From Candidatus Gorgyraea atricola (GTDB lineage Bacteria > Omnitrophota > Gorgyraeia > Gorgyraeales > Gorgyraeaceae): DNA of 64,000 nt. Numbering within the stretch: the first letter of the stretch is position 1; each line of letters opens with the position of its first letter. The notes beneath the pieces are model-generated. The model was given only the letters and a program-made list of their open reading frames with translations. It did not search any database and was not told the DNA's origin. The position numbers were made by a program, and so were the translations under genes. This document shows positions 6,497-64,000 of this stretch, in pieces. Location of the stretch: contig JAVCCW010000029.1 of NCBI GenBank assembly GCA_030765235.1, forward strand, positions 219,499 to 283,498. Reading direction: 5' to 3'.

Positions 6497-6507
6497 AAGG
6501 CATAGAT

Positions 6508-43868: not shown

Positions 43869-43880
43869 AAAATATTAATC

Positions 43881-44486: not shown

Positions 44487-44510
44487 GATCTCGCTGAAAC
44501 GGAAAGTTCA

Positions 44511-46429: not shown

Positions 46430-46430
46430 G

Positions 46431-49126: not shown

Positions 49127-51031
49127 ATGTGCGGGATCTGTGGAATAGCTAATATATCGGATATCTCAAGAAAGATAGAAGCGTCTCATATCAGGCTGAT
49201 GTGCGATACATTGATCCACAGGGGTCCGGATGAAGATGGCGCGTATATTGACAACCATGTCGGTTTGGGCATAAGGCGCCTGCGGGTTATAGATTTAAAA
49301 ACCGGCAGCCAGCCGATATTTAATGAGAATAAGAGCATATGTGTAGTTAATAACGGAGAGATATATAATTTTAAAGAACTAAGGGAAAGGCTGCGCGCCA
49401 AAGGTCATGTCTTTTCTACAAATTCCGATGCAGAGGTCATAGTCCATTTATACGAGGAGGATGAAAATAGATTCATCGAGAATCTTGACGGCATGTTTGC
49501 CTTTGCCTTGTGGGATAAAAGGAACAGGAAGCTGGTAGTTGCGAGGGATAGGCTTGGGGTCAAGCCTTTGTATTATACGGTATCGGATTCAAGACTTTTA
49601 TTCGCGTCTGAGGTAAAGGCAATCATCGGCATAGAGGAAATAAGTCGGGATATCAATATGCAGGCCTTGGATTATTATCTTTCGCTGAATTATATTCCTT
49701 CGCCATTGACCATGTTCAAAGACATCTATAAACTGCCTCCGGCCAGCTTTCTTACACTGCATAAAGGCAGGGTCAACATCTCTAAATACTGGGATATAAC
49801 ATATAAAAAGGATTCCGGCAATGGCGTAAAGAAAGAGGGGTATTATTGCGAGGCGATATTGGGACTACTGGAAGAGGCTGTTAAGAAGAGGCTGGTGAGC
49901 GATGTCCCTCTCGGATTCTTTTTAAGTGGCGGGATAGATTCAAGCGCTATTGTGGCGTTGGCGAGCCGTTTTAATAAACCGATCAAGACTTTCTCCATAG
50001 CTTTTAAGGAAGGGTCTTTTGATGAATCGCGTTACGCGAGATCAGTGTCTGAAAGGTTTGGTACAGAACATCATGATTTTACAGTTTTGCCTAAAATAGA
50101 AGATATATTAGAAAAGGTCGTGTGGCATATGGATGAGCCTTGCGCGGATTCTTCGGCGATCCCAGTATATTATTTGTCGAAAATGGCGCGCGAACAGGTT
50201 ACAGTAGCCTTGTCAGGAGACGGAGGGGATGAATTATTCGGAGGATATCATTCTTACAATGCTTATAAAGCTGCAAGGATCTATAGAAAGACACCAGGTT
50301 TTCTTAAGTATGCCATTAAAAATGCCATAAAAAGAATACCTGTCTCATATTCGAAAGTGAGCATGGATTATATGGCTAAAAGGTTTGTAGATGGAGTCGA
50401 TCTGGATCCGTTAAGAGCGCATCTTTGGTGGACAGGTTCATTCAGTGAAACAGAAAAAGACTGTTTATACTCTAGGAACATAACTGGCCGCTTAAAAGGC
50501 TCAGGTAATTTTCAAATATTCAGAGATCATTATGAAAGAGAAGGCGCGAATGATGAATTAACCAGGCTTCTTTACCTTGATTTAAAGACATATTTGAGTG
50601 ATGATATCCTGGTAAAAGTAGACAGGATGAGCATGGCCAATTCTTTAGAAGTAAGGTCTCCTTTTCTGGATTTTAAATTAGCGGAGTTCGTATCTAATAT
50701 CCCTGTCCAATTTAAAATACGCGGGTTTGAAAAAAAATATATATTAAAAAAAGCCGTTTCTAAGATCCTTCCTGGGTCAGTTGTCAATCGTGGCAAAAAA
50801 GGCTTTAGTATCCCGGCTGGCCTCTGGATCAGAACGCACCTGAAAGAAATGACCATGGATTTATTGAATACCGGAAAGATAAAAGAACAGGGATTTTTTA
50901 ATCCGGCATTTGTATCAAAATTATTAGATAGGCATATCAGAGGAGAAGAGGATAATGGTCATCGCATCTGGGGATTGTTAGTTTTTTCTATATGGCATGA
51001 AACATTTATCAAAAGAAAGGTAAAGGTATAA
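49127..51031 (+). CDS. Asparagine synthetase (glutamine-hydrolysing) family amidotransferase, second paralogue
   Basis: MCGICGI N-terminus and FLSGGIDSS PP-loop. Confidence 0.85.
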   Translation: MCGICGIANISDISRKIEASHIRLMCDTLIHRGPDEDGAYIDNHVGLGIRRLRVIDLKTGSQPIFNENKSICVVNNGEIYNFKELRERLRAKGHVFSTNSDAEVIVHLYEEDENRFIENLDGMFAFALWDKRNRKLVVARDRLGVKPLYYTVSDSRLLFASEVKAIIGIEEISRDINMQALDYYLSLNYIPSPLTMFKDIYKLPPASFLTLHKGRVNISKYWDITYKKDSGNGVKKEGYYCEAILGLLEEAVKKRLVSDVPLGFFLSGGIDSSAIVALASRFNKPIKTFSIAFKEGSFDESRYARSVSERFGTEHHDFTVLPKIEDILEKVVWHMDEPCADSSAIPVYYLSKMAREQVTVALSGDGGDELFGGYHSYNAYKAARIYRKTPGFLKYAIKNAIKRIPVSYSKVSMDYMAKRFVDGVDLDPLRAHLWWTGSFSETEKDCLYSRNITGRLKGSGNFQIFRDHYEREGANDELTRLLYLDLKTYLSDDILVKVDRMSMANSLEVRSPFLDFKLAEFVSNIPVQFKIRGFEKKYILKKAVSKILPGSVVNRGKKGFSIPAGLWIRTHLKEMTMDLLNTGKIKEQGFFNPAFVSKLLDRHIRGEEDNGHRIWGLLVFSIWHETFIKRKVKV

Positions 51032-51035
51032 AAAT

Positions 51036-51995
51036 ATGGATATGAAAAAACCTTATCTAAGCGTTATAGTGCCTCTTTTTAATGAAGAGCACCATATAGC
51101 ATTGCTTTACAATAAGTTAAAGGAAGTCATTTCTAGATCAGGGATAATTTATGAATTAATATTTATAGATGATGGCAGCATAGACAAGACTTTTGATTTG
51201 GTCATGGAGTTACATAAAAAGGATAAGGATGTAAGGGTCATAAGGTTCTCTAAAAATTTCGGCCAGACGCTGGCATTGTCAGCCGGGTTTGATTCCGCGA
51301 ACGGAGAAGTTATAATAGCTATGGATGGGGATATGCAGCACGACCCGGAGGATATACCTTTATTTTTAAGCAAAATAGAAGAAGGATACGATGTAGTCAG
51401 CGGATGGAGAGAAAACAGGGTAGATGCCTTTTGGTCAAGAAGGCTTCCGTCTATGGTAGCGAATAAAATAATCTCCTGGATCTCCGGGGTAAAATTGCAT
51501 GATTTTGGGACAACATTCAAGGCTTATAAAAGCCATACTATAAAGAACTTGGATCTTTTCAGTGAATTACATAGGTTTATACCTGCTTTAGTCAGCGTAC
51601 AGGGGATCTCTATGACAGAGGTGCCTATTAAAAACACAGCCAGGAAACACGGGAAATCTAAATATAACCTTTTTCGTGTTTTCAAGGTCCTGCTTGATTT
51701 TGTGGTTGTTAAATATCTGATCAGTTTTATTAATTCCCCTTTAAAGATATTCGGTTCTTTGGGCTTGTTCATGTCTATGGCAGGCATATTCATAGACATT
51801 ATTTTAATCGGCCTGTTTCTCTTAGGAAAGATCGCCAATGTCAGGGATCACGGTGGGCTGCTGTTATTGTCGGTTCTATTGGTGGTAGTCGGAGTGCAAT
51901 TTATAACAGTGGCTGTCATAGCGGAGATAAGCGCCAAGATCTACCATGAGGTAAAAGGCCGGAAGGGATATGCGATAAAATTTAGAACAGATTAA
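51036..51995 (+). CDS. Polyprenyl-phosphate glycosyltransferase (GT2, GtrB/ArnC/Dpm1-like with C-terminal TM helices)
   Basis: LSVIVPLFNEE...IFIDDGSID...AMDGDMQHDPEDIP. The two C-terminal hydrophobic helices are characteristic of GtrB/ArnC. Confidence 0.8.
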   Translation: MDMKKPYLSVIVPLFNEEHHIALLYNKLKEVISRSGIIYELIFIDDGSIDKTFDLVMELHKKDKDVRVIRFSKNFGQTLALSAGFDSANGEVIIAMDGDMQHDPEDIPLFLSKIEEGYDVVSGWRENRVDAFWSRRLPSMVANKIISWISGVKLHDFGTTFKAYKSHTIKNLDLFSELHRFIPALVSVQGISMTEVPIKNTARKHGKSKYNLFRVFKVLLDFVVVKYLISFINSPLKIFGSLGLFMSMAGIFIDIILIGLFLLGKIANVRDHGGLLLLSVLLVVVGVQFITVAVIAEISAKIYHEVKGRKGYAIKFRTD

Positions 51996-52103
51996 TCTAT
52001 TAGTGTTTTAGTAGTATAAGATTTATATATGAAAAATATTGCATTTATTATATAATTATAGCTTAAAATAGATATAGTCTTTCAGAGAGAGGACGTTTTA
52101 TAG
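51996..52103. promoter_or_regulatory. AT-rich 108-bp intergenic gap, candidate promoter for the downstream operon
   Basis: Contains TTGCAT and TATAAT-like hexamers but with non-canonical spacing. No hairpin was seen. Confidence 0.25.
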
Positions 52104-53948
52104 ATGCTTAAAAATGAGAACATAATCTGCATATCCAGCATTGACTGGGATTTTATATGGCAGGGTCATCAAGAGATAATGTCTACCCTGGCAGAAAAGG
52201 GGAATCGTGTGCTCTTTATAGAAAATACAGGAGTGCGTACGCCAGGCATAAAAGATCTCTCCCGTATAAAGAGCAGGATCAGGAACTGGCTCAGGGGCGT
52301 AAAGGGTATACGCAAAGAAAGGGAAAATTTATACATATTCTCTCCTTTGGTCCTGCCGTTTCCTTATTCAAGGGTTGCGAGATGGATCAACAGGTATTTG
52401 ATATTGGCTGTGCTGGAGAAATGGATGAAAGCGGTAGATTTCAGCGATCCTATTGTCTGGACATTTTTGCCTGCGCCTCTAAGCATGGATATAGCCGATA
52501 GTTTGATGAAGAAACTTATAGTCTATTATTGCATAGACAATTTTTCCGGCAGTTCTCTATCGGCAAAGAAGATAGGAAAGTCAGAAGAAAGCCTGCTTAA
52601 GAGGTCTGACCTGGTTTTTGTGACATCAGAAGAGCTTTACAATAAATGCGCCAGGCATAACAGCAATGTCTATAAATTTCCTTTTGCCGTAAGTTTTGAA
52701 AAATTCGAAAAAGCAAGGCTGGGAAACACTGAGATCCCCGAGGAGTTAAAAAATATCAAACAGCCGATAGTCGGCTATGTGGGAGGAGTGCATAAATGGG
52801 TAGATCAGGGATTGATCAATGAATTAGCAAAGAAACATACTGACTATTCTTTTGTTTTTGTCGGTCCGATCCAAACCAAAGTATCCGAGCTCCTGAAACT
52901 TAAAAACGTTCATTTTTTAGGCAAAAAAGAACATGAAAGACTGCCTTTATTCATAAAATATTTCAATGTATGCATCATTCCTTATCTTATTACGGATTAC
53001 ACCAGAAATGTTTATCCTACAAAGTTAAATGAGTATCTTGCTCTGGGCAAAGCGGTCATATCGACACCTTTGCCGGAAATAGAATTATTTAATAAGGAAT
53101 ATGAGGATATTGTATGTATAGCCGAAGATGCCAATGCCTTTAGTGGGCACATAGAAAGGACTGTTAGGGAAAATGAACCTTCTTTGGTAAGCAGGAGAAT
53201 AGAAACAGCGCGGGATAATAGCTGGGAGAGCCGAATAGAGAAAATGAGCTCTACAATAGAAAAAGAGCTCGAAAGAAAAAAAATAGACAGGGAAAAAAGA
53301 TGGAAGGAAAATCTCCTTATTTTTTATAAGACAGCAAGAAAAAAGGCCGTCCGTTTCGGAATAATATGCCTTTCAGTATATCTTTTACTGTTCAAAACGC
53401 CTTTTATATGGTTTGCAGCCGAGCCTTTGAAGATCTCAGATGCCCCGCGTAAGGCAGACACTATTCTCGTATTTGGAGGAGGCGTGGGCGAGACAGGTGG
53501 GCCAGGCAGGAGTACCATAGAGAGGGCAAGATACGCCGCAGAACTCTATCTAAAAGGTTATTCCGGCAAAATAATATTCTCATCAGGATATACATATATT
53601 TACAACGATGCCGAAAACATGAGACTTATGGCTGTTTCTATGGGGGTAGACGAAAGAGATATTATTTTAGAACAAAAAGCAAATAGCACTTATGAAAATG
53701 TAATATTTTCAAAGGAGATTTTAGATAAAAATAATTGGCATTCAGTATTATTGGTTTCTTCGCCGTATAACATGCGCCGCGCTGATTTAGTATTCGATAA
53801 GCATGCTGGGGGCGTAAATATGTTTTGTGTGCCGGTTGAAAAAAGCCAGTTTTATGACAGGACTTTTGGTATAAAGGTAGGGCAGATAAGAGCGATCGTG
53901 CATGAGTATATCGGCATTATATATTATTTATTAAGAGGATATGCGTAA
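52104..53948 (+). CDS. Fusion: GT4 glycosyltransferase + C-terminal DUF218 (YdcF/ElyC/SanA-like) domain
   Basis: N-terminal GT-B features, and C-terminal ADTILVFGGGVGETGGPGRSTIERARYAAELY...VLLVSSPYNMRRA typical of DUF218. Confidence 0.65.
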   Translation: MLKNENIICISSIDWDFIWQGHQEIMSTLAEKGNRVLFIENTGVRTPGIKDLSRIKSRIRNWLRGVKGIRKERENLYIFSPLVLPFPYSRVARWINRYLILAVLEKWMKAVDFSDPIVWTFLPAPLSMDIADSLMKKLIVYYCIDNFSGSSLSAKKIGKSEESLLKRSDLVFVTSEELYNKCARHNSNVYKFPFAVSFEKFEKARLGNTEIPEELKNIKQPIVGYVGGVHKWVDQGLINELAKKHTDYSFVFVGPIQTKVSELLKLKNVHFLGKKEHERLPLFIKYFNVCIIPYLITDYTRNVYPTKLNEYLALGKAVISTPLPEIELFNKEYEDIVCIAEDANAFSGHIERTVRENEPSLVSRRIETARDNSWESRIEKMSSTIEKELERKKIDREKRWKENLLIFYKTARKKAVRFGIICLSVYLLLFKTPFIWFAAEPLKISDAPRKADTILVFGGGVGETGGPGRSTIERARYAAELYLKGYSGKIIFSSGYTYIYNDAENMRLMAVSMGVDERDIILEQKANSTYENVIFSKEILDKNNWHSVLLVSSPYNMRRADLVFDKHAGGVNMFCVPVEKSQFYDRTFGIKVGQIRAIVHEYIGIIYYLLRGYA

Positions 53949-53956
53949 ATTGAGAT

Positions 53957-55186
53957 ATGAAAAGCATTAAAGTTAGGAATATTCTGTTTATAATATTTAT
54001 TCTTGCGCTAGCTCTGAGATTATTCGCCGTTGCTACGTATCAAGAGTCAGGTAAACCGCTTTATGCAGATGCCAGGGTTTATGATAATTTGGCGGTAAAC
54101 ATAATGTCCGGTCATGGCTTTACGCAAGTCGTTGATGGGCCAAGAGTTCCTACGTCCAATAGGATGCCTATGTACCCGTTATTTTTAGCAGGTGTTTATT
54201 CTGTCTGTGGACATAGTTATTTGGCTGTAAGAATAATACAGGCTATTTTAGGCGCCTTGTTTTGTGTCGTGATATTTTTTATTACCAATATTATCTATAA
54301 TGATATAAAATCCGGCATCTTGGCTGCTTTGATGGCGGTTTTTTATAAGCCTTTTGTTTCAGGTTTTCTCTATTATGGCGGCCCTGCTTCAATTCTTTCG
54401 GAATATTTTTATATTTTTATACTTGGCGTTAGTATTTTATTTTTACTTTATTTTCTCAAGACAGAAAAGAAAGTTTTTGCGGTATTATCAGGTATTTTTG
54501 TAGGACTAACAATATTAACCAGGCCGGAATTCGCGTTATACCCGGTTGTTTTGTTTCTGTATTTAGTTTTTTCATGCAGGTTTAATATGAAAGTTTTTTT
54601 TAGAAAGTTTTTTATGATGTATGTTTTTATAGCATTGGTTTTGGCTCCATGGGTGACTAGGAATTATCTTGTTCAGGGTAAATTTATTCCACTAACTACC
54701 GTAAGTGGTTTTGCATTTTGGATGGGGAATAATTCTGTTGCGAGTGGCGGATGGGCCTATCCTCAACACTATTCTAAAGTCATGGATGAAATAAAGAATA
54801 TCTCCGAGTACGAGAAGAACAGGATATATTTTAAGCAAGGGATCGAGGAGTTAAAAAGAGATAAGAAGAGAATACCAGGCTTATTCTTTAAAAAAGCAAT
54901 AGTGCACTGGGCGCCTTTTGAAAAAGGATTAAAGGTGTTCAATCCTTTTTACGCATTCGTGCTTTTCTTCGGAGTTATCGGAATTTTATTTTTTAGAAAA
55001 CATGGTATCATGGAAGATATCGTGTTGATGATTTTTGCGGTCACGACACTGACAGCAATTATTATATGGGGAGATCCGAGGTACAGGTATCCTTATGAAT
55101 CTTATTTGATTATTTTTGCTGCCGTTGCAATAACTAAAATCTATAGCATGATAAAAAGAAAGGTCTTGGCTTATGGAAAAGGATAA
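53957..55186 (+). CDS. GT-C fold membrane glycosyltransferase (ArnT/PMT/GT39-83-like)
   Basis: ILALALRLFAV...GHSYLAVRIIQAILGALFCVVIF. Paralogous to ORF 59365, which shares GHSYLAVRIIQSILGALTCVFIY. Confidence 0.6.
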   Translation: MKSIKVRNILFIIFILALALRLFAVATYQESGKPLYADARVYDNLAVNIMSGHGFTQVVDGPRVPTSNRMPMYPLFLAGVYSVCGHSYLAVRIIQAILGALFCVVIFFITNIIYNDIKSGILAALMAVFYKPFVSGFLYYGGPASILSEYFYIFILGVSILFLLYFLKTEKKVFAVLSGIFVGLTILTRPEFALYPVVLFLYLVFSCRFNMKVFFRKFFMMYVFIALVLAPWVTRNYLVQGKFIPLTTVSGFAFWMGNNSVASGGWAYPQHYSKVMDEIKNISEYEKNRIYFKQGIEELKRDKKRIPGLFFKKAIVHWAPFEKGLKVFNPFYAFVLFFGVIGILFFRKHGIMEDIVLMIFAVTTLTAIIIWGDPRYRYPYESYLIIFAAVAITKIYSMIKRKVLAYGKG

Positions 55187-55871
55187 AAATAAAACCTGCG
55201 CTATCTCGTTGGTAATGCCTGCTAAAAACGAAGAAGAAGGAATAGCTGAACTTGTGGATTCATCAAGAAATTTTGTGGATGAGATCATAGTTGTAGATGG
55301 GCATTCAAGCGACAAAACAGCAGAGCGCGCTTCTTCTAAAGGAGCAAAGGTCGTTTTTGATAATAAAAAAGGTAAGGGGGATGCATATAAGGTAGGCATA
55401 CAAGAGGCAAGCGGGAATATAATTGTCTTTATGGATGCAGATGGGTCGCATGATCCGGCGCAAATCCCTGCATTAATAGAGCCTTTATTGAAGGATGAGG
55501 CAGATTTTGTAATAGGGTCAAGACATAAGGGCGGAAGCGACGAATGGAAGGGGGACCTTGACACGTATTTACGTAGTGTAGGCGGTGGATTTTTAACATT
55601 AGTGATTAATTATATATGGAAAACAAATCTTACAGAATGCCTTAATGGGTTCAGGGCTATAAAAAGAGATGTTGGGTTGAAGCTTGACTTAAAGGCTGAT
55701 GATTTTGATATTGAGCAGCACATGATAGTCCAATGCCTTAAGAAAAAATTTAGAGTAACAGAGGTAAATTCTCACGAATATGAAAGAAAATGGGGTGTCT
55801 CCAAATTGCCTACTTGCAGAAAAGCGCATTTATTTTTCTGGAGGTTGTTTTTGGATATTTTTAATTTATGA
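55173..55871 (+). CDS. Family 2 glycosyltransferase (Dpm1/GtrB-like catalytic domain, no TM tail)
   Basis: ISLVMPAKNEEEGI...VVDGHSSD...FMDADGSHDP. Confidence 0.7.
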   Translation: MEKDKNKTCAISLVMPAKNEEEGIAELVDSSRNFVDEIIVVDGHSSDKTAERASSKGAKVVFDNKKGKGDAYKVGIQEASGNIIVFMDADGSHDPAQIPALIEPLLKDEADFVIGSRHKGGSDEWKGDLDTYLRSVGGGFLTLVINYIWKTNLTECLNGFRAIKRDVGLKLDLKADDFDIEQHMIVQCLKKKFRVTEVNSHEYERKWGVSKLPTCRKAHLFFWRLFLDIFNL

Positions 55872-55886
55872 CAGGTTAGGTGAAAA

Positions 55887-57299
55887 TTGAAAATATTGCT
55901 TTGTACCGCAACAAGAGAAAGTAATCCTGCTTCAATAAAGGCTATTGATGAGGTGTTTACTGTTTCAGAGTCGCTAGGGATAGCTTATATAGCCGCAGTT
56001 TTAATACAAAATGGTTATGATGTCGAGGTATTGGATTGTCTTGCGGAAGGATATGATAGCGGCGCATTTCAAGCATTCTTGCTGCAAAAGAAATATGATG
56101 TTATAGGTATAAGCACATATACACCCGACTGGTATATAACAAAGAAAAATCTTTCAATGATTAAGAGGCTGCAACCTGACTCAATTACAGTTATAGGCGG
56201 CCCGCATGTAAACTCTATGGTAAGTGGAGGCTTGGGTAAATATTTATTTAGCGATAGCGATTTTTTCGATTTCGCTGTTTATGGCGAAGGCGAGCAGACG
56301 TTCTTAGATATAGTTAGAGCAGTAGCAGATAAGAAAGACATAAATAACATTGATGGAGTTCTCTGGAAAAATAGTAACGGGCAAGGCCATATAAATTTGC
56401 CGCGGAAGCTGATAAAGGATATAGACACAATACCTTTTCCTGCTTTAGAATGCCTTCCCCTGTCTAAATATAAAAGGACACCTTCAAGCTATAAAAGACC
56501 ACCGGTGAGATCTATATTGACAACAAGAGGATGTCCATATTCATGCATCTTTTGCGATCGGGGCGCTTTCGGCTCTTTCGTAAGGCAAAGGTCTATAGAA
56601 AACGTAATGCGTGAAGTTGATAGATTGGTAAAAGAATTTAAAACAAAAGAATTAAGGATTTGGGATGATGTTTTTACCATGAACGAAAAAGTTACAACAG
56701 GAATCTGCGATGAATTAAAAAGGTATGATTTGGTCTGGAGTTGTAATGGCAGAGTTAATATGATTACCCCTAACATGCTCAAACATATGAAATCTGCAGG
56801 TTGCTGGTCAGTAGATTTTGGCATAGAGAGTGGCAGTAATAAAATACTAAAATTAATCAATAAAAAATTTACTATTCAAAAGGCATCCGAAGCTATAAAA
56901 ATGGTAAAGAAAGCGGGAATGGAGGTAAGGGCATTTTTTATTTTAGGGCTTCCCGAAGAAACAATAGAAACTGTCCAGGATACCATTGATTTTGCACTTT
57001 CAAGTGATATTGATTACGCGACATTCTATCTGCCCCAGGCTTATCCCGGTACAAGGCTATATGAAATAGCCAAAAAAGAAAATGCGTTAGAAACAGATTA
57101 TTCAAAATATCTTATTACAGGAAAAGAAGCTTCTTATGTAAATAAAAACATCGGTCTAAAAAATATACAGCTTTTTCAAAGAAAGGCCTACGCGTCCTTT
57201 TACAAGCGCCCTTCTTATATAGCAAAAAGAATATTGAAGATCAGGAGCTTTGAGGACATCAAGAGATATTTGAGCGCCATATCAATTTTTAAGATCTAA
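55887..57299 (+). CDS. B12-binding radical SAM enzyme (class B), second paralogue
   Basis: MKILLCTA N-terminus with B12-binding-like domain, and radical SAM motif TTRGCPYSCIFC. TTG start at 55887 (a purine-rich GGTGA lies only about 3 nt upstream, a weak/close RBS). There is no downstream in-frame ATG near the conserved N-terminus. Confidence 0.75.
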   Translation: MKILLCTATRESNPASIKAIDEVFTVSESLGIAYIAAVLIQNGYDVEVLDCLAEGYDSGAFQAFLLQKKYDVIGISTYTPDWYITKKNLSMIKRLQPDSITVIGGPHVNSMVSGGLGKYLFSDSDFFDFAVYGEGEQTFLDIVRAVADKKDINNIDGVLWKNSNGQGHINLPRKLIKDIDTIPFPALECLPLSKYKRTPSSYKRPPVRSILTTRGCPYSCIFCDRGAFGSFVRQRSIENVMREVDRLVKEFKTKELRIWDDVFTMNEKVTTGICDELKRYDLVWSCNGRVNMITPNMLKHMKSAGCWSVDFGIESGSNKILKLINKKFTIQKASEAIKMVKKAGMEVRAFFILGLPEETIETVQDTIDFALSSDIDYATFYLPQAYPGTRLYEIAKKENALETDYSKYLITGKEASYVNKNIGLKNIQLFQRKAYASFYKRPSYIAKRILKIRSFEDIKRYLSAISIFKI

Positions 57300-57318
57300 T
57301 TTAAGGTGATTTTTGGAC

Positions 57319-59346
57319 ATGTTATCGGTTATTGTTCCTGTATATAATGATGAGAAATATTTAGCGAAATGCTTGGAGTCTGTATTTAATTCTGATTACC
57401 CGGATTTTGAAGTAATAGTTGTAAACGATAATAGCACAGACGGTTCATTGGATATCGCAAAAAGATTCTCATGTCGGATAATAGATTTAAAAACAAATGA
57501 AGGAGTAGCTACAGCGAGAAATAAAGGCGCGGAATCCGCAAAAGGAGATATTCTTGTTTTCTTTGATTCGGATGTAGTGCTTGAGAGAGACACTCTGTCA
57601 AAGTTCGCAAAAGCCCATAAAAATCCAGATATCAAGATATATCAATGTCAAATATACCATGAGTCATTGACTCCTGGGTTTACTCCCGCAGTCCATGCAG
57701 TGCTTCATAATTATCTATTGAGTTTAATGGGGTCGGAGACTTCATATGTGCAAACGTTTGCTTTCTCAATCAGTAAAGCAGTCTTTTTTGAAATAGGAGG
57801 ATTTAATACTAGTTTTAAGTCGGCAGGAGGGGAAGAATTTGAGATAGGGCAGGTTATTCAACAGCACAATTACAAGATGTTGTTGGATCAGTCATTTCAT
57901 GTACATCATAATTTTGTGAGTTTTCCGAAAAGGTTTAAAAAATTACTTAAAAGAAGCTATGTCTATGTAAGAATCGTCCTTCAGAGAAATTTTAAACTTG
58001 ATAAGGGTTATGGTACTCTAAAGGAAGGCATTAATTCCATGCTTTCTGTGATCGGAATCTTGTCACTTAGTATTTCGTTATTTATGCGTTATGCGCTTTT
58101 ATTATTTTTTGCTACTATATTAATTCAAACCCTTCTTGACCATGGCTTGTATGCTTATAGCGCTAGAAAAAAAGGGATATTTTTTTCAGCCCGTTCGATA
58201 CCTATAATTTACCTTTGGTATTTAGCGATGGGCATGGGTGCTATAAGAGCTGTCCTATCTCACTATCTAACGAAGATATATTCTTGCCTAAAGATGTTCA
58301 ATTTTTTATTTTCTAAAACTCCACCGTATGTAATATTTTTAGTAACGTCTAAATGTAATGCTCGATGCAAACATTGCTTTAATTGGAAAAAAGTGCAAAA
58401 TCAGGAATTACCAAAAGAACTTACCTTAGATGAAATTAAAAAGATATCCGCAGGTTTTGGCATAATAAAATACATGACTTATGGCGGAGGGGAGCCTAGT
58501 TTACGAGAAGACATTGTGAGTGTTACGCAGGTATTTTATGGTAATAATAATTTAGAGAGGTTAAATTTTATTACCAATGGTTTTGCTACAGAGAAGCTTG
58601 TTAATGAGATAGAGGGGATTTTAAGGATTTGCCCGGGATTGCACCTTACAGTCAGTTTTTCAATAGACGGTATCGAAGGGCAGCACGATGAAATAAGAGG
58701 GGTGCCAGGGGGATTTAAAAGATTGTTAAAATCTGTAAATGAAATAAAAAATTTACAAAAATATTATCCTAAGCTGAAGATATTAGCAACAACTGTTTAT
58801 TCCGGACTCAACTCAGATAATATATTCAATATTATAGATTATGTGACAAAGACATTGAAATTAGAAATGGTTCTGGGTTATATTCGCGGCGAGATATTTG
58901 ATAAGGATGCCAAGAAAGTAGATATAGAAACTTACGTTAAGGCAAGCACGATGCTTATGAGGCTGAATACTAAGAATTCAAGAAATATTGATATAATTAG
59001 AGCGATAGACAATGTTTGCTTTAGATTAGTAGCAAAGACAAAGAAAAAAAAAGAGAGACTATTACAGTGTGTAGTTGGAAAAAAACTTATAGAGATAGAT
59101 AGTGACGGTACGATAATTCCTTGCGAGATGTTAGATGTTAATTTTGGCAATATGCGAGATTATGATTACGATATCAAAAGAGTTTTAAAGACAAAGAAAG
59201 CCCTGGATTTCTTTAAATTCTTGAAAAGAAAAGATTGTTATTGTACATGGGAATGCGCTATGAAAAATAATATAATTTACTCTATATCGGAATATCCTGG
59301 TTTGTTTTTCGAATGCCTTAGGCAATTATTGATAAAGGATAAATAG
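57319..59346 (+). CDS. Fusion: GT2 glycosyltransferase + membrane segment + radical SAM (SPASM-like) domain
   Basis: N-terminus LSVIVPVYNDEKYL...VIVVNDNSTD...FDSD (GT2), then a central hydrophobic region. The C-terminal domain has TSKCNARCKHC (CxxxCxxC) and a Cys-rich tail, CEMLD...CYCTWEC. ATG 57319 is 9 nt after TAAGGTGA; TTG 57313 is an alternative start. Confidence 0.7.
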   Translation: MLSVIVPVYNDEKYLAKCLESVFNSDYPDFEVIVVNDNSTDGSLDIAKRFSCRIIDLKTNEGVATARNKGAESAKGDILVFFDSDVVLERDTLSKFAKAHKNPDIKIYQCQIYHESLTPGFTPAVHAVLHNYLLSLMGSETSYVQTFAFSISKAVFFEIGGFNTSFKSAGGEEFEIGQVIQQHNYKMLLDQSFHVHHNFVSFPKRFKKLLKRSYVYVRIVLQRNFKLDKGYGTLKEGINSMLSVIGILSLSISLFMRYALLLFFATILIQTLLDHGLYAYSARKKGIFFSARSIPIIYLWYLAMGMGAIRAVLSHYLTKIYSCLKMFNFLFSKTPPYVIFLVTSKCNARCKHCFNWKKVQNQELPKELTLDEIKKISAGFGIIKYMTYGGGEPSLREDIVSVTQVFYGNNNLERLNFITNGFATEKLVNEIEGILRICPGLHLTVSFSIDGIEGQHDEIRGVPGGFKRLLKSVNEIKNLQKYYPKLKILATTVYSGLNSDNIFNIIDYVTKTLKLEMVLGYIRGEIFDKDAKKVDIETYVKASTMLMRLNTKNSRNIDIIRAIDNVCFRLVAKTKKKKERLLQCVVGKKLIEIDSDGTIIPCEMLDVNFGNMRDYDYDIKRVLKTKKALDFFKFLKRKDCYCTWECAMKNNIIYSISEYPGLFFECLRQLLIKDK

Positions 59347-59364
59347 TTTTTTTCTCAAGTTACA

Positions 59365-60564
59365 ATGTCGAAAAGAACTGGAACATTATTTAATATGGGA
59401 TTTACCAAGGGACGCCATACATTAGGGTTTATATTTTTGTTAGCCTTTATCATAAGGCTGTTATTTGTATTGCAGAGTAGCGACATTCCTACGGCAGATG
59501 CTTATATTTATGATGGATTAGGATTATCGCTGAGTCAGGGTAATGGTTATGTAAATATGTATGGCAGTCCTCATTCCTTTTATCCTCCGTTTTATCCGTT
59601 TTTTTTATCACTGATCTATGCTATTTTTGGGCATAGTTATCTCGCGGTAAGGATTATCCAGTCTATTTTAGGCGCGTTGACGTGCGTATTTATATATTCT
59701 ATAGGGAATAGGCTGAAAGGCAGCGCTGTCGGCGTATTATCTGCTTCAGTAGCGGCGTTATACTTTGTATTTATAAAGAGCGCAGAGCTTTTGCTCACAG
59801 AATCATTTTTTACTTTTCTTTTATGCGCGATAGTTTTTTATATTCTTAAAATCAGGGAGAAAGAAGCTGTGCTCAAAAACTATGCCATTTTAGGATTATT
59901 AATAGGCGTGTCGCTTCTTACCAAGTCAGCGATGATGTTTTTTCCATTATTTTTGCTACCAGTGTTTATCGATATAAAAAAAGACAGGACAAAAAAATAT
60001 TTATTGATGTTGCTATTTTTTGTCCTGACGGTTTCTCCATGGCTTATAAGGAATTATAATGTTTTTCATGGATTTATCGGGGTTTCCACGCAGAGCGGTA
60101 TAGGTTTTTATTCTTCTTATCGGCCCCCTGAAGGCATATTCGGGAGGCTTGCCACTTCTGATGATCCCGTAATCAGAGAAGCAGGAAATATTGCTTCGCC
60201 TGTTTTGCGCAGTAATTTTTTAATAAAAAAGACATTCGAGTTTATATCGGAGAATCCCGTAGAAGTTTTAAGGTTGGAACTCAAGAAGATCTTATCTTTC
60301 TGGGCTCCGTTTGACTGGGAGATAGTAGGCGGGAGATGGTTTAATTTTGTATATGCAGCGATACTGCCATTTTTCGCGGTCGGAGCCTTACTTTCCCTTA
60401 AGGAATTTAAGAAGATTTACCCGGTTTTACTGCCAATAATTTATTTTCAAATAGTGGCTTTAGTCTTTTATGGCTCGCCGCGCTTTAGATTACCTGTGGA
60501 GCCATATATATTTATTCTGGCAACAGTAGGGTTTTTAGTATGCTGGAGGAGGTGGCGGGTATGA
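59365..60564 (+). CDS. GT-C fold membrane glycosyltransferase (ArnT/PMT-like), paralogue of 53957
   Basis: See ORF 53957. Shared sequence block, about 11 TM helices. Confidence 0.6.
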   Translation: MSKRTGTLFNMGFTKGRHTLGFIFLLAFIIRLLFVLQSSDIPTADAYIYDGLGLSLSQGNGYVNMYGSPHSFYPPFYPFFLSLIYAIFGHSYLAVRIIQSILGALTCVFIYSIGNRLKGSAVGVLSASVAALYFVFIKSAELLLTESFFTFLLCAIVFYILKIREKEAVLKNYAILGLLIGVSLLTKSAMMFFPLFLLPVFIDIKKDRTKKYLLMLLFFVLTVSPWLIRNYNVFHGFIGVSTQSGIGFYSSYRPPEGIFGRLATSDDPVIREAGNIASPVLRSNFLIKKTFEFISENPVEVLRLELKKILSFWAPFDWEIVGGRWFNFVYAAILPFFAVGALLSLKEFKKIYPVLLPIIYFQIVALVFYGSPRFRLPVEPYIFILATVGFLVCWRRWRV

Positions 60565-61415
60565 TCGATGAGTTTTATAGAGAGATTATTAAAAGACTCG
60601 ATATCCATTTTTTTGTTGAGACAGGCACAGATATGGGGGAGACGGTAGCTGAAGTGGCTAGGTGGTTTTCGGAGATGGATTCCAGATTTGGAAAAATATC
60701 TGATTATGCAGTGACTGGTGCAAGATACTATAGCTTAAATAGCAAACTCATTAAGTATCCTATTTTTGAAGATGTTAGTGAATCTCAATTTAATTTATTT
60801 TCTGTAGATATTGATCGTCATTCATTTGAGAGCGCCAGAGAACTTTTTAAAACAAATAAAAATATTAAACTGTTTCATGGGGATTCTGCAAAATTTTTAC
60901 AAAAGTGTATTGATGAAGGCATATTTAAAAGTTCGAAAACAATATTTTTTCTCGATGCACATTGGGGGAAGTATTGGCCGTTAAGAGATGAGCTAAAGCA
61001 AGCATTAAAACTTGAGAAATCCGTCATTATAATAGACGATTTTTTTGTTCCTAGACGATCAAGTAAGCATCGGCCGCATGGAGATTTTGGATTTGATTTT
61101 TATTATGGGAGGATTTTGTGCTGGGGATATATTTACGATTTATTTTATAACGTAGATGTCAGAGTGTATTATCCTACCCATTCAAATAAATACGGCAGGG
61201 GTTTTGTTGTGTTGTTCAAAGGGTATAGTAGTGAAGAGCTTAGTTTTTTGAAAAGCATGCCGTTAGAGTATTTTGATAAAGACAACCCATTACATAGAAA
61301 ACCAGTTTCTCTATCTTTGTTGGCATATTTTGATTTTTATTATTTTGTACGTCGCATAGTCCCTTTATCATTACTGAGAAGAGCTATAAGGATGTTTCAA
61401 AAGATAGTCCATTGA
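60561..61415 (+). CDS. Hypothetical protein, possibly a methyltransferase-like (TylF/CmcI-like) fold
   Basis: HFFVETGTDMGET and FFLDAHW are weakly reminiscent of macrocin-O-MTase/cephalosporin hydroxylase-like folds. ATG 60561 follows GGAGGAGG and overlaps the upstream stop (ATGA). Confidence 0.35.
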   Translation: MIDEFYREIIKRLDIHFFVETGTDMGETVAEVARWFSEMDSRFGKISDYAVTGARYYSLNSKLIKYPIFEDVSESQFNLFSVDIDRHSFESARELFKTNKNIKLFHGDSAKFLQKCIDEGIFKSSKTIFFLDAHWGKYWPLRDELKQALKLEKSVIIIDDFFVPRRSSKHRPHGDFGFDFYYGRILCWGYIYDLFYNVDVRVYYPTHSNKYGRGFVVLFKGYSSEELSFLKSMPLEYFDKDNPLHRKPVSLSLLAYFDFYYFVRRIVPLSLLRRAIRMFQKIVH

Positions 61416-61422
61416 GTATATT

Positions 61423-62907
61423 ATGAAGCCCTTGCTTTCGGAACAAGAGAAAAACAGGACCATTTATTGGGACAAGTTTGACCCTTTTGTAGAATTACGG
61501 ATGGGATGGCGGGCTTCTATGATGCGCCATCTTTTTCATATTCTTCCGGGGCAGAGCATTCTTGAGATAGGAGGGGGTAACGGAAAATTTACACAGGTTT
61601 TAGCCCAGGCAACGCGAGGAGAATGCAAGATAACATCTATAGTTTTTTCACGCGAATATTTGGATAATAAAAAGAATCTTGCCTGCTCCAATGTAGATAC
61701 ATTATACATGGATATGTTTCCGGGATCATTAGTAGATAGAAAGTTTGATTGTGTAGTGGCGCAAGATATGTTAGAAAAAAACACTGCAACTGATTTTCTC
61801 TATATCGTTAAATCTTTGATAAAACCCGGCGGGAGCCTTCTTTTGTTCGAGCCTAATTCCTGGAATCCTTATTATAGAATCCGCAGAACGATCAGAAAAA
61901 TATTACCGGTAGACTGGAAACGTCCGTCAGAAGGCGTTTTACTTAATAGGCTGCAGGTGTTTTCTGTTTTGTCAGAAATAGGATATGCTAAAATCAATGT
62001 CCTTCCTTACGATTTTCTTTATTCACCGATTCCCAAATTTTTAGTATGGCCGGCCAAGAACATGAGTATCATTATGGAAAATTGCCCTTATTTAAGAAAT
62101 CTTGCCGGTTCATTGTATATTTGGGCGCAGAATCCTGCTTTTGAGAACCACAAAGAATTAACCGTGGATCTATGTGAACATCCCATGTTCTTTAAAAAGG
62201 TATCTTTTATAATACCATGTCATAATGAAGAGATGAATATAAAGTCGTTGGTAAAGAATTTAAAGGATTTTTATGACAGGTATATTTTTGAAATTATTAT
62301 AGTAGATGATAATTCGAAAGACAGAACTGCTGAAATAACCGAGGCATTAGTGAAAGAAGATAGCCGTATAAGGCTTATAAAGCGTGTGCCTCCGAACGGA
62401 GTCGGCAGGGCTTTGCGAGATGGTCTGAAAAAGGCGAAGGGCGAATACATTTTAATAATGGACAGTGATTTTCAACATATTATCCCTGAAATGAGAGATC
62501 TTTTCGATGTCGTAGCCAAAGGCGCTGACGTAGCAGTAGGCTCCAGGTTTTCTCGTGATTCTGTTTTGGTAAAATATGATTTCACAAAAATTATAGCCAA
62601 TCGTTTTTTTCATATATTAGCCAATTTATTTCTTGGCAGGCATTTTCGGGATATTTCCAATAATTTGAAGATTTTTCGCCGCGAAGTAATTGAGAAAATT
62701 ACAATTGAATCGGATGATTTTGCTGCAAATGCCGAGACAGGCCTAAAACCTTTATTGCTCGGTTATAATGTTAAGGAGGTACCTATTTCCTGGATAAACA
62801 GAAGCGTAGACATGGGCGTTTCTTCTTTCAAGGTCTTTAAGACGGGACCAAATTATTTTAAGATTTTATTAAAACTGGTATGGCGACGGATAATAGGTAA
62901 GTTATGA
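61423..62907 (+). CDS. Fusion: class I SAM methyltransferase + GT2 (Dpm1-like) glycosyltransferase
   Basis: N-terminal ILEIGGGNGKFTQVL (motif I). C-terminal VSFIIPCHNEE...IIVDDNSKD...IMDSDFQH. Confidence 0.75.
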   Translation: MKPLLSEQEKNRTIYWDKFDPFVELRMGWRASMMRHLFHILPGQSILEIGGGNGKFTQVLAQATRGECKITSIVFSREYLDNKKNLACSNVDTLYMDMFPGSLVDRKFDCVVAQDMLEKNTATDFLYIVKSLIKPGGSLLLFEPNSWNPYYRIRRTIRKILPVDWKRPSEGVLLNRLQVFSVLSEIGYAKINVLPYDFLYSPIPKFLVWPAKNMSIIMENCPYLRNLAGSLYIWAQNPAFENHKELTVDLCEHPMFFKKVSFIIPCHNEEMNIKSLVKNLKDFYDRYIFEIIIVDDNSKDRTAEITEALVKEDSRIRLIKRVPPNGVGRALRDGLKKAKGEYILIMDSDFQHIIPEMRDLFDVVAKGADVAVGSRFSRDSVLVKYDFTKIIANRFFHILANLFLGRHFRDISNNLKIFRREVIEKITIESDDFAANAETGLKPLLLGYNVKEVPISWINRSVDMGVSSFKVFKTGPNYFKILLKLVWRRIIGKL

Positions 62908-64000
62908 AAATAAAATCTGCAGCGCCTATTTTTATTATAATCCTGGCGTCTTTATTTATAAATTTATGGGGAATAGCTCATGACATGCCTCATAGTTACG
63001 AACATGATGAAATAAATTTTGTCGTAACTGCTCTTAGTCTTGGCAAAGGAGAGCTGAACACCGGTTTTATACACGGGGGTTTTTTATATCATTTTTTATT
63101 TTTTGAATATATTATTTTTTATTTTATTAAGTTATTTTCAGGAAGCATAAAAACTACCAGTGACTTTTTGTTATATTATATAAATAATCCGGAAGCGTTC
63201 TTTTTGATAGGAAGAATCAGCATTGCTCTGTTAGCTACATTTTCTGTATTTTTAACATATCTGATAGCTAAAGGTTTAGCAAATAGATTCTCCGGTTTTT
63301 TAGCTGCGTTATTTCTGGCTTTTTCCCTGCTATATGTCATTATGGCGCATTTAATAAAAGCAGATATCATCTACGTTCTTTTTTTACTGCTTTCTTTTCT
63401 CTGTACAATGCGTGGCAATAGAAATAAGAAATTTTTTTATTTGGCCGCTTTCCTGATAGGGCTTGCCATTTCTGTCAAGTATTTGGCAGTATTCGGTATA
63501 TTTTTTGTTTTATCAGGATTTTTTCTTGAGAAAAAATCGATAAAGGAAATAGTGAAAGACTGTTTATTTATGTGTATTTTTGTAATAGCAGGATTTTTTC
63601 TCGGCCAACCTTTTATTATATTTTATATAGGAACTTTTTTAAAAGCCATTTTCGGGTTAAGCCCTGTTTTTACAGTTCCTATTGGAGATCGCGGCGATCC
63701 TACATGGCATTTGTATTTAGTATGTTTAAAAAGATCAATAGGTATATGTTTATTTATAGCGTTTTTCTTATCTTTTTTGTTAATTTTTAAAAAGGATAGG
63801 CGAAAAGCAAGTATACTTATTTTGCCTTATATCCTGGCTTACTTTTTATTTATTTTTTTAGCAGCCAATGCGCGGCCAAGTTACTTAATGGGCGTTTTAC
63901 CTTTCGTATGTATTTATACAGCTATCTTTATAGCTGACATAGTTTCTTATATAAATACTAGATTGCAAAATACATTTATTTATTCAATAGTAGGTTTTTT
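62904..64000 (+). CDS. GT-C fold membrane glycosyltransferase (ArnT/PMT/GT39-like), 3'-truncated by the window edge
   Basis: Translated by hand from ATG 62904, which overlaps the upstream stop. The product, MKIKSAAPIFIIILASLFINLWGIAHDMPHSYEHDE..., has many TM helices and no stop before 64000. It is not in the ORF table because it runs off the end of the window. Confidence 0.6.
   Translation, partial: MKIKSAAPIFIIILASLFINLWGIAHDMPHSYEHDEINFVVTALSLGKGELNTGFIHGGFLYHFLFFEYIIFYFIKLFSGSIKTTSDFLLYYINNPEAFFLIGRISIALLATFSVFLTYLIAKGLANRFSGFLAALFLAFSLLYVIMAHLIKADIIYVLFLLLSFLCTMRGNRNKKFFYLAAFLIGLAISVKYLAVFGIFFVLSGFFLEKKSIKEIVKDCLFMCIFVIAGFFLGQPFIIFYIGTFLKAIFGLSPVFTVPIGDRGDPTWHLYLVCLKRSIGICLFIAFFLSFLLIFKKDRRKASILILPYILAYFLFIFLAANARPSYLMGVLPFVCIYTAIFIADIVSYINTRLQNTFIYSIVGF

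Follow-up and report, generated by a model that had tools for sequence, protein, structure and literature searches.

How might an uncultured bacterium finish the glycan on its surface? The question is raised by a 64,000-nucleotide (nt) stretch of DNA, referred to here as the window, from Candidatus Gorgyraea atricola, an uncultured member of the Omnitrophota represented by a metagenome-assembled genome (MAG) from Ace Lake, Antarctica (PMC8542988). Omnitrophota are uncultured, mostly ultra-small bacteria that are thought to be attached to, or to prey on, other cells (PMC10066038), and their surface chemistry is essentially uncharted. An earlier note on the window had described three tandem modules towards its downstream end, each pairing a family 2 glycosyltransferase (GT2) that makes a polyprenyl-phosphate sugar with a GT-C membrane glycosyltransferase. 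All open reading frames (ORFs) of the window were scanned with Pfam and NCBIfam, and the genes named in that note were all found at the starts that it gives, as judged from the ORF list and Pfam. The analysis established which genes are present, their family and fold assignments, the motifs that are conserved and the linkage that is conserved. With a probability of roughly 0.62, they reflect a region that encodes several multi-component transmembrane glycosylation sets working by a four-step lipid-sugar scheme.

Donor synthase candidates and GT-C enzymes

The genes that bear on this reading are referred to by their start positions (aa, amino acids; TM, transmembrane):

28248–29639, + strand: fifth GT-C, PMT_2 family, 463 aa (Pfam PMT_2 30.8 bits, cutoff 26.1)
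47412–49112, + strand: divergent orphan membrane protein of GT-C fold, 566 aa (AlphaFold2 model and Foldseek)
51036–51995, + strand: ArnC/GtrB-class GT2, 319 aa, with two C-terminal TM helices
53957–55186, + strand: GT-C, PMT_2 family, 409 aa, paralog of 59365 (Pfam PMT_2 38.9 bits, cutoff 26.1)
55173–55871, + strand: Dpm1-like GT2, 232 aa, without TM helices (PDB and NCBIfam matches)
59365–60564, + strand: GT-C, PMT_2/PMT family, 399 aa, without a large periplasmic domain
61423–62907, + strand: class I methyltransferase fused to a Dpm1-like GT2, 494 aa (Pfam)
62904–64000, + strand: GT-C, PMT/PMT_2 family, cut by the window end (PMT_2 37.3 bits, PMT 30.6 bits)

A 34-mer scan of metagenome contigs recovered one 3.2 kb contig (L035; other loci and contigs are cited by number in the same way) whose overlap with the final 245 nt of the window is free of mismatches (245/245 bases) and which adds 2,962 nt, equivalent to positions 64001–66962. 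It completes GT-C 62904, which is 562 aa at full length, has a soluble C-terminal domain and ends about 592 nt past the window. Directly after it come a fourth Dpm1-like GT2, a pair of methyltransferase genes and the beginning of a third AsnB-type gene. The cluster therefore continues beyond the window.

In phmmer searches, 51036 matched ArnC (9hwj, E = 2.9e-49) and GtrB/sll0501 (5ekp, E = 5.9e-43) over its full length, the latter including the two C-terminal TM helices. Its best NCBIfam models were ArnC (2.9e-56) and PgfS (2.1e-54), both under their equivalog cutoffs; its TM segments lie at residues ~238–302, and it carries the motif MDGDMQHDPEDI. The best PDB match of 55173 was the Pyrococcus dolichol-phosphate-mannose synthase (PfDPMS, 5mlz; 6.8e-17), with NCBIfam matches to AglJ (4.1e-40) and, over nearly the whole length, to PpgS (2.2e-20). 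This protein carries the motif MDADGSHDP and an amphipathic C-terminal helix. The fusion protein 61423 consists of Methyltransf_25 (residues 46–137) and Glycos_transf_2 (261–426), and its GT2 domain again matched 5mlz best (1.3e-22). The fourth GT2, a short protein that starts at ~64.6 kb, just past the window end, gave the same best PDB match (E = 2e-25). ArnC and GtrB were further PDB matches, below 5mlz, for 55173, the 61423 C-domain and the downstream GT2, while the NCBIfam matches of the Dpm1-like GT2s were AglJ, PpgS and Dol-P-hexose transferase.

In all four Dpm1/ArnC-like GT2s, a D-x-D motif precedes (Q/S/E)-(H/Y) and a proline lies one or two positions further on, a context typical of the Dpm1/GtrB group. 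TM helices are absent from three of the four. Having zero or two C-terminal TM helices, as in GtrB, the GT2s differ from processive synthases with their multi-TM channel domains. A processive-synthase identity was also not upheld by similarity, as matches to PgaC and NodC were partial and much weaker than those to ArnC, AglJ and DPMS. The GT2s upstream (22973 and 33013) and the N-terminal domain of 57313 matched generic Leloir GT2s instead (GalT1, chondroitin synthase, EpsE and TuaG). The matches of 51036 to ArnC/GtrB, and of 55173 and the 61423 C-domain to 5mlz, bear out the class proposed earlier: on sequence grounds, 51036 and the other two named GT2s, together with the fourth downstream, are predicted to be polyprenyl-phosphate sugar synthases.

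Among the membrane proteins, PMT_2 scored above its gathering threshold for 53957, 59365, 62904 and 28248, and PMT (PF02366) was above cutoff for 59365 (27.2 bits) and 62904 (30.6 bits) and absent for 53957. The protein encoded by 59365 is 100% identical to one recorded for Candidatus Gorgyraea atricola and belongs to a family of >120 members, mostly from Omnitrophota, to which NCBI and JGI give the name 'ArnT family'. A single-sequence phmmer search of 59365 against the PDB gave no match; profiles and fold searches were required. The AlphaFold2 model of 59365, built from 48 sequences, had a predicted local distance difference test score (pLDDT) of 93.4 and a predicted template modelling score (pTM) of 0.92, and its top 40 Foldseek matches in the PDB were all GT-C enzymes. 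AftA, AftB and PimE were among the structural matches. Pfam, profiles and fold searches thus agree with the earlier assignment of the membrane partners to GT-C enzymes of the PMT/ArnT clan. Identity as Wzy or O-antigen ligase was rejected, as Wzy_C was found in no candidate and the fold searches returned significant matches to GT-C enzymes only. No BLAST similarity at E <1e-3 was detected between 62904 and either 53957 or 59365.

Acidic residues in the first loop are a feature of the PMT and ArnT families. This is paralleled among the relatives of 62904, in which D35-E36 after TM1 is invariant, as is D154. In the 59365 family, P75, Y77, Q99, R229, N230 and R373 are invariant, and D45 is present in at least 90% of members, within a D-A-x-x-Y-D motif just after TM1. 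The same family motif follows TM1 in 53957 (D38-A-x-x-Y42-D43). The acidic loop-1 motif looked for in each GT-C was present as D-E in the 62904 family, whereas 53957 and 59365 have D-A.

The solved protein nearest to the 59365-family profile was TMEM260, a protein O-mannosyltransferase (E = 8.7e-5), and the best PDB matches of the 62904-family profile were yeast Pmt1 (1.3e-9) and ArnT (7e-3). TMEM260, Pmt1 and ArnT all use polyprenyl-monophosphate sugar donors. These matches, with the above-cutoff PF02366 scores of 59365 and 62904, raise the question of whether the GT2/GT-C machinery instead glycosylates proteins (surface, S-layer, pilus or giant adhesin), in the manner of actinobacterial Ppm1/Pmt and of eukaryotic PMT/TMEM260 O-mannosylation. 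The likeness to Dpm1/Ppm1 and PMT (GT39) or TMEM260 systems holds for both partners, the GT2s being nearest to 5mlz, and for the invariant loop-1 D-E of the 62904 relatives, though not for the D-A of 53957 and 59365. Some distant members of the 59365 family bear C-terminal TPR repeats, as TMTC and TMEM260 do, and genomes of the class Gorgyraeia reportedly code for giant proteins (bioRxiv 10.64898/2026.06.07.730766). However, Pfam found neither a MIR domain nor TPR in the four proteins here, the fold scores of ArnT and AglB were nearly as good, and the NCBIfam Pmt equivalog gave 18.4 bits against a cutoff of 800. Judged by the missing MIR domains and the Pmt score, the window GT-Cs do not look like bona fide GT39 PMT enzymes. 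The genes lie, moreover, in a cluster of polysaccharide type that also encodes a Wzx-like protein, an ABC exporter and numerous Leloir glycosyltransferases, and no candidate gene for an acceptor protein was found nearby. Protein glycosylation is considered unlikely, though worth keeping in view.

The orphan 47412, which had been called GT-C-like, retained that description on the fold of its predicted model. The protein has ~11 TM helices and a soluble C-terminal domain of ~190 aa, had no match in Pfam or NCBIfam, and is related to only 6 of 1.84 billion representative proteins. The AlphaFold2 model was of moderate confidence (pLDDT 70); the top 23 Foldseek matches in the PDB were all GT-C enzymes, and matches included AglB, STT3, PglB, AftA, ArnT, ALG9 and Pmt4. 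The TM core aligned with the 59365 family at 88% probability in hhalign, and a conserved Asp (DQ) follows TM1. Homologs were located in L039 (7001–8707), where an AsnB gene abuts, and in L040 (6383–8107), where a Trm112-methyltransferase, an ArnC-like TM-anchored GT2 and a GT4-DUF218 protein are encoded nearby; 47412 has these neighbours in the window too. Formyltransferase, GT2 and deacetylase genes also occur in L040, in an Arn-like arrangement. Relatives of the fifth GT-C, 28248, adjoin 59365-family GT-Cs in five loci (L003, L007, L014, L031 and L034).

Linkage, pairing and the age of the paralogs

Linkage was examined in 29 non-redundant loci encoding a 59365-family GT-C, from Omnitrophota, Acidobacteriota, Gemmatimonadota, Planctomycetota and others. 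A Dpm1/ArnC-class GT2 was encoded on the same strand within 3 kb of the GT-C in 18 loci, and within 100 bp in 11 of those 18. The adjacency of GT2 and GT-C noted for the window is thus kept in other genomes. Spacing was often 0–50 nt or overlapping, across Omnitrophota, Acidobacteriota and other phyla; in the window, 61423 and 62904 overlap by 4 nt, and 53957 and 55173 by 14 nt. Two or more GT-C genes were present in 16 loci, and arrays of two to three adjacent GT-Cs recur.

Proximity of this kind would also be seen without any functional pairing, if the GT2s were ordinary cytoplasmic transferases acting on a growing lipid-linked glycan and lay near the GT-Cs through a shared cluster. All family matches were under curated cutoffs, the second-best match of 55173 was glucosyl-3-phosphoglycerate synthase, a GT2 with a soluble acceptor, and 11/29 loci had no adjacent Dpm1-like GT2. 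However, the GT2s that adjoin GT-Cs are specifically of the Dpm1/ArnC class, whereas the other GT2s of the cluster are generic, and the adjacency is often as tight as given above in several phyla. Moreover, a GT-C can work only with a lipid-linked donor, which some enzyme has to supply. A chance association of this sort is scarcely credible.

The genes interleaved with the sets are as follows:

49127–51031, + strand: AsnB-type glutamine amidotransferase, 634 aa (Pfam Asn_synthase and GATase_7)
52104–53948, + strand: GT4 (TuaH-like)-TM-DUF218 fusion, 614 aa (Pfam Glycos_transf_1 and DUF218; NCBIfam TuaH 2.8e-35)
55887–57299, + strand: cobalamin-binding radical SAM protein, HpnJ-like, 470 aa (Pfam B12-binding and Radical_SAM)
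57313–59346, + strand: generic (GT21-like) GT2-TM-radical SAM/SPASM fusion, 677 aa (Pfam)
60540–61415, + strand: soluble protein, 291 aa, with no family match, overlapping the 3′ end of 59365 by 25 nt

Between partners these genes differ from set to set: GT4-DUF218 in one, the B12-radical SAM protein and the GT2-radical SAM fusion in another, and none in the third. In L008, the order is GT4-DUF218, short GT2, 53957 ortholog, 55173 ortholog (84%) and 59365 ortholog. This supports the pairing of 55173 with 59365 that had been proposed as the second module, and shows that the two radical SAM genes lying between them in the window are an insertion. Gene 55173, itself a predicted polyprenyl-phosphate sugar synthase, is the likely donor supplier for 59365. 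The 53957 orthologs of L008 and L011 (58% and 51% identity) are each preceded by a short Dpm1-like GT2, and the window has none at that place; 51036 may serve 47412, 53957 or both. In L014, the methyltransferase and the GT2 of 61423 occur as adjacent separate genes. Counting the fifth GT-C at 28248 and the fourth GT2 past the window end, the extended region has at least 4 Dpm1/ArnC-like GT2s and 5 GT-Cs, with five GT-Cs in 37 kb. The GT2/GT-C sets of the earlier note are thus present, though not in the number of three tandem modules. Donors and flippases are shared in known systems (PMC8035078), so that strict one-to-one pairing is not required.

A near-identical block in 53957 and 59365 had been taken as the mark of a recent duplication. 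The block, GHSYLAVRIIQ and following residues, is indeed there, at 54209 and 59629, with 19/24 residues identical. At the DNA level, 64/90 positions are identical (71%), with many synonymous differences, and the two proteins are 33% identical overall (E = 1.6e-46). Orthologs of 53957 and 59365 stand side by side in L008, from another Omnitrophota genome, at 58% and 61% identity, and both occur in L011 at 51% and 57%. Recent duplication or gene conversion was therefore rejected; the duplication is old, since each paralog has its own ortholog in other Omnitrophota. The block matches the consensus of the whole 59365 family (FGHSYxAVRIIQSIxGAL) and is therefore a conserved motif rather than the trace of a recent event.

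Proposed scheme, flippase and acceptor

In the proposed scheme, GT2s at the cytoplasmic face (51036, 55173, the 61423 C-domain and the fourth GT2 past the window) would load a single sugar, taken from a nucleotide sugar, onto polyprenyl phosphate. The lipid-linked sugar might then be tailored by the 61423 methyltransferase, the B12-radical SAM protein 55887 or AsnB, and would be flipped by a transporter encoded elsewhere or shared, for which 38939 is a candidate. Finally, the periplasmic PMT/ArnT-clan GT-Cs (47412, 53957, 59365, 62904 and 28248) would transfer the sugar to the acceptor, using the conserved Asp in the first periplasmic loop. ArnD is a precedent for tailoring at the lipid-linked stage. 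Others are the epimerases that act on undecaprenyl-P-ribofuranose, and also DprE1/E2 (PMC11127046). The enzymatic activities, donor sugars, flippase, acceptor and partner pairing are those that we infer from the genes.

Several observations weigh against this scheme. No donor sugar can be named, because every NCBIfam score falls far short of its equivalog cutoff. GT2 and GT-C genes alternate in the window, each GT-C being flanked by two candidate partners, so that the assignment of partners is ambiguous, and synteny supports both 55173 with 59365 (L008) and 47412 with 51036 (L040). No Dpm1-like GT2 lies nearby in 11 of the 29 loci, about three of which are cut at or near the start of the GT-C. 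The 64 kb window yielded no initiating phosphoglycosyltransferase (Bac_transf or WecA type), Wzy or O-antigen ligase. By sequence, the solved proteins that come nearest are protein O-mannosyltransferases, and the acceptor could therefore be a protein. Finally, no GtrA/SMR-type flippase is encoded in the window, which has no intergenic space for one.

The last point concerns the three-component logic of the earlier note, in which a synthase and a transferase were to be joined by a flippase: the GT2 and GT-C classes stood, and no GtrA/SMR-type gene was found for the flippase leg. A hidden small flippase gene was rejected, as the window has four intergenic gaps of >100 nt and none of >250 nt. No GtrA-type flippase was seen in the related loci inspected either. 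Two candidates are encoded in the cluster, a distant Wzx-like protein and an ABC exporter:

38939–40447, + strand: Wzx-like MOP-family transporter, 502 aa (Pfam Polysacc_synt 2.4e-19; NCBIfam HfsF 1.5e-10)
12788–14650, + strand: fused ABC exporter, HepA/MsbA/PglK-like, 620 aa (Pfam ABC_membrane and ABC_tran)

The ABC exporter matched NCBIfam HepA (5e-124), MsbA (1.6e-107) and PglK (1.4e-72), all under cutoff. The Wzx-like 38939 is the only flippase-type polytopic protein near the GT2/GT-C sets, and we infer that it may flip polyprenyl-P-sugars. Published systems use unlinked shared, Wzx-type (GacK) or MATE-type flippases (PMC8035078, PMC11127046). Thus, the absence of a GtrA-type flippase counts against the model without refuting it.

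The acceptor is most likely a polysaccharide made by the upstream Leloir GT2 and GT4 enzymes and the nonulosonic-acid pathway, a choice favoured because of the genomic context. Rather than adding side chains to such a polymer, the GT-Cs could build the main chain, as in mycobacterial arabinan and lipomannan synthesis from decaprenyl-P-sugars (Emb, Aft, Mpt and PimE), with five GT-Cs and four synthases assembling a large part of a heteropolymer at the outer side of the inner membrane. The density of five GT-Cs in 37 kb would suit this role, as would the two to three adjacent GT-Cs in 16/29 related loci, the lack of Wzy and of an initiating phosphoglycosyltransferase in the window, and the presence of AftA, AftB and PimE among the structural matches. 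Nevertheless, the Wzx-like flippase and the cytoplasmic Leloir GT2/GT4 enzymes of the window, at least 8 in number, suit a conventional lipid-linked repeat unit, and 53957 and 59365 do not have the carbohydrate-binding periplasmic domains of polymerising GT-Cs of the Emb/AftD type. Wzy and the initiating transferase may also sit outside the window; Wzy_C was found nearby in L005 and L036. Main-chain synthesis by the GT-Cs is quite improbable.

Periplasmic decoration of a polysaccharide, the favoured reading, has close counterparts. In Lactococcus lactis, three GT-A/GT-C pairs operate with one unlinked shared flippase, and Bacillus subtilis has three pairs (PMC8035078). We compared the window with the Gtr systems of Shigella and Salmonella phages, with CsbB/GtcA/YfhO and with L. 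lactis CsdAB/CsdCD/CsdEF and CflA (PMC8035078). As in these systems, a GT-A of the GtrB/Dpm1 class is encoded beside a polytopic GT-C, and several pairs occur per organism; their flippase can be unlinked and shared. Unlike them, the window sets are packed into one giant cluster, being neither scattered nor phage-borne, three of the four GT2s have no TM helices, and the GT-Cs belong to the PMT_2 clan and not to the YfhO or serotype-specific Gtr families. Here, genes for radical SAM proteins, methyltransferases and amidotransferases lie among the sets, and, in a further difference from the Gtr systems, no GtrA-type flippase lies in or near the sets.

The similarity of 51036 to ArnC, and the tailoring of a lipid-linked sugar before flipping (by ArnD in that pathway), recall the Arn pathway. 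An Arn-like modification of lipid A or the lipopolysaccharide core was therefore considered, in which 51036 and the ArnT-like GT-Cs would decorate the phosphates of lipid A with a sugar that is cationic or modified in some other way. The 'ArnT family' name of the 59365 relatives at NCBI and JGI fits this, as do the formyltransferase, aminotransferase or deacetylase genes beside GT2/GT-C in the related loci L007 and L040. In contrast, the equivalog scores were far under cutoff (ArnC 190.8 against 529 bits, ArnT 27.2 against 567 bits), ArnA, ArnB, ArnD, ArnE and ArnF were not found beside 51036 in the window, with no ArnA, ArnB or ArnD homologs beside any gene from 51036 to 62904 and Arn-like sets seen only in L007 and L040, and the GT-Cs of 399–409 aa are shorter than ArnT and do not have its periplasmic domain. 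Four to five GT-Cs also exceed what lipid A modification needs. The window system is not the Arn pathway, as the cutoffs are widely missed and ArnA, ArnB and ArnD do not adjoin; a related modification of lipid A is very improbable.

In mycobacteria, the TM-less PpgS works with the GT-C Rv3779 (PMC3485146). As in PpgS (Rv3631)/Rv3779 and the Ppm1-dependent GT-Cs, where a TM-less GT2 makes the polyprenyl-P-sugar and a GT-C decorates a wall polysaccharide (PMC3485146), 55173 has no TM helices and matches the PpgS model (2.2e-20), with low identity and under cutoff. Unlike that system, the window has no small membrane partner of the Rv3632 kind, and the host is a diderm member of the Omnitrophota. 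Gram-negative O-antigen loci also encode three-component systems, and tailoring of the undecaprenyl-P-sugar can precede its export there (PMC11127046). The Citrobacter O-antigen pentofuranose system, which consists of PPPRS, a MATE flippase and a GT136 GT-C (PMC11127046), shares with our scheme periplasmic post-polymerisation glycosylation in an O-antigen-type cluster, auxiliary enzymes that modify the lipid-linked donor before export, and, should 38939 be the flippase, a transporter of MOP/MATE and not GtrA type. It differs in its donor synthase, which is the phosphoribosyl pyrophosphate-dependent PPPRS and not a GT2, and in its GT-C families.

The locus is an unusually dense new example of a known transmembrane glycosylation mechanism and introduces no new mechanism, the core being known from Gtr, Arn, PMT/Ppm1, CsbB/YfhO, Csd, PpgS/Rv3779 and Gram-positive wall-polymer systems. 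What is new is the host phylum, the density of the sets (at least four GT2s and five GT-Cs), the presence of radical SAM genes among them, and two GT-C families, a minimal one of ~400 aa and an orphan one. Because the core mechanism is already known from the Gtr, Arn, PMT and wall-polymer systems, the value of the locus lies in its breadth and new enzyme families and not in a new principle. A large share of the surface glycan of one lineage is probably finished periplasmically from lipid-monophosphate sugars by many parallel GT2/GT-C sets. Experimental handles are offered by the conserved gene pairs, for heterologous reconstitution; by the well-modelled minimal GT-C of ~400 aa without a periplasmic domain, which is attractive for structural and mechanistic work; and by radical SAM proteins that are candidates for work on lipid-linked sugars. 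Side leads are the trio of B12-radical SAM protein, GT2 and GT-C, the GT2-radical SAM fusion family and the orphan GT-C.

Tailoring genes and the surrounding cluster

The closest NCBIfam model to the amidotransferase 49127 was the XrtA/PEP-CTERM EPS amidotransferase (619 bits, under cutoff). AsnB genes recur beside related GT-Cs in six loci (L016, L018, L020, L031, L034 and L039), and 49127 is probably a tailoring enzyme that amidates a sugar or uronate. The best conserved gene of the neighbourhood is 52104, whose orthologs are 56–70% identical and adjoin GT2/GT-C genes across Omnitrophota, in L005 (2075–3922), L008 (4893–6740), L010, L011 and L040 (12430–14304). This conservation of the GT4-TM-DUF218 fusion suggests a core role spanning cytoplasm and periplasm.

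For 55887, a candidate sugar tailoring enzyme, the best NCBIfam model was HpnJ (2.8e-61, under cutoff). A B12-radical SAM gene directly adjoins a Dpm1-like GT2 in the window (55173–57299), L007 (1677–3875), L009 (2–1155), L010 (1849–3940) and L013 (5837–7975), usually with a GT-C next door. This recurring adjacency is suggestive only as a sign of tailoring; 55887 may act on the sugar at the lipid-linked or nucleotide stage. Moenomycin is a lipid-linked oligosaccharide. Among B12-radical SAM precedents, HpnJ acts on hopanoid-linked glucosamine and MoeK5 acts in moenomycin biosynthesis (PMC9204698). We advance only tentatively, as an unlikely reading, that the recurring trio of Dpm1-like GT2, cobalamin radical SAM protein and GT-C marks a new tailoring step on a polyprenyl-phosphate sugar, in which an HpnJ/MoeK5-like enzyme would C-methylate or rearrange the lipid-carried sugar before flipping and installation by the GT-C. 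If this were true, the locus would be an extracytoplasmic assembly line of four to five GT-Cs (one an orphan with six relatives) and a methyltransferase-GT2 fusion, through which a bacterium that is ultra-small and may depend on a host would equip its surface with several radically modified sugars.

The neighbouring fusion 57313 combines Glycos_transf_2, Glyco_transf_21, Radical_SAM and SPASM domains, with TM segments at residues 239–279, and its GT2 domain is nearest to generic GT2s and not to DPMS. The conserved, uncharacterised fusion family has ~50 full-length members of 25–69% identity, from sources that include Coatesbacteria, Nanoarchaeota and Sigynarchaeota MAGs. Their contexts range from polysaccharide clusters (L036 and L037) to a housekeeping region of a DPANN (Nanoarchaeota) genome (L038). 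Given the generic GT2 domain and these unrelated contexts, 57313 was rejected as the GT2 partner of 59365. The direct abutment of the 55173 and 59365 orthologs in L008 also spoke against this partnership. We consider 57313 to be an independent unit inserted between 55173 and 59365.

Gene 60540 had no significant match in Pfam, NCBIfam or the PDB and no TM helix, and its start is kept beside 59365 in the same-species contigs L001 and L002. A VETGTDMG stretch in the protein resembles, by eye only, an S-adenosylmethionine (SAM)-binding, methyltransferase-like sequence.

The window as a whole is a single tightly packed glycan cluster, nearly all on the + strand and with ~37% G+C, which extends to at least 67 kb when the part beyond the window end is counted. 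The region from 47.4 to 64 kb and its continuation form the distal part of this surface-glycan cluster. At least 13 glycosyltransferases are encoded in the window, as well as two AsnB amidotransferases, many SAM methyltransferases and several radical SAM proteins. A promoter scan gave counts near those of shuffled sequence, and terminator-like sites were located inside genes. Upstream features include the following:

58–1227: UDP-GlcNAc 2-epimerase
5525–12546: complete-looking nonulosonic-acid (pseudaminic/legionaminic-type) pathway (Pfam/NCBIfam scan of ORFs)

The nonulosonic-acid genes, with PseB-, PseC-, PseG- and NeuB-like members, encode a PseB-like dehydratase, a DegT aminotransferase (6508), a GT28_C (PseG-like) protein, NeuB, a GNAT protein and an 820 aa protein with a C-terminal CMP-transferase domain. 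From 22.9 to 35 kb, generic Leloir GT2 and GT4 enzymes, a deacetylase and RmlD are encoded, and the ORFs at 21207 (587 aa) and 35822 (430 aa) are without TM helices.

A second unusual set lies at 14670–21203 and may yield another CMP-activated acidic sugar. It comprises an HpcH/HpaI aldolase, an HMGL-like aldolase fused to an MptE-like/DUF115 domain, an LdpA-like Fe-S protein, an HAD phosphatase, a B12-radical SAM protein and a CMP-transferase. Further downstream, the stretch 40435–47399 encodes a run of SAM methyltransferases, six in all, of which one carries a Trm112-like zinc ribbon. A radical SAM/SPASM protein (41073), a PP-loop ATPase (42094) and a GT4 (45296) are encoded together with them. 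This run of genes implies heavy methylation or other tailoring of the glycan.

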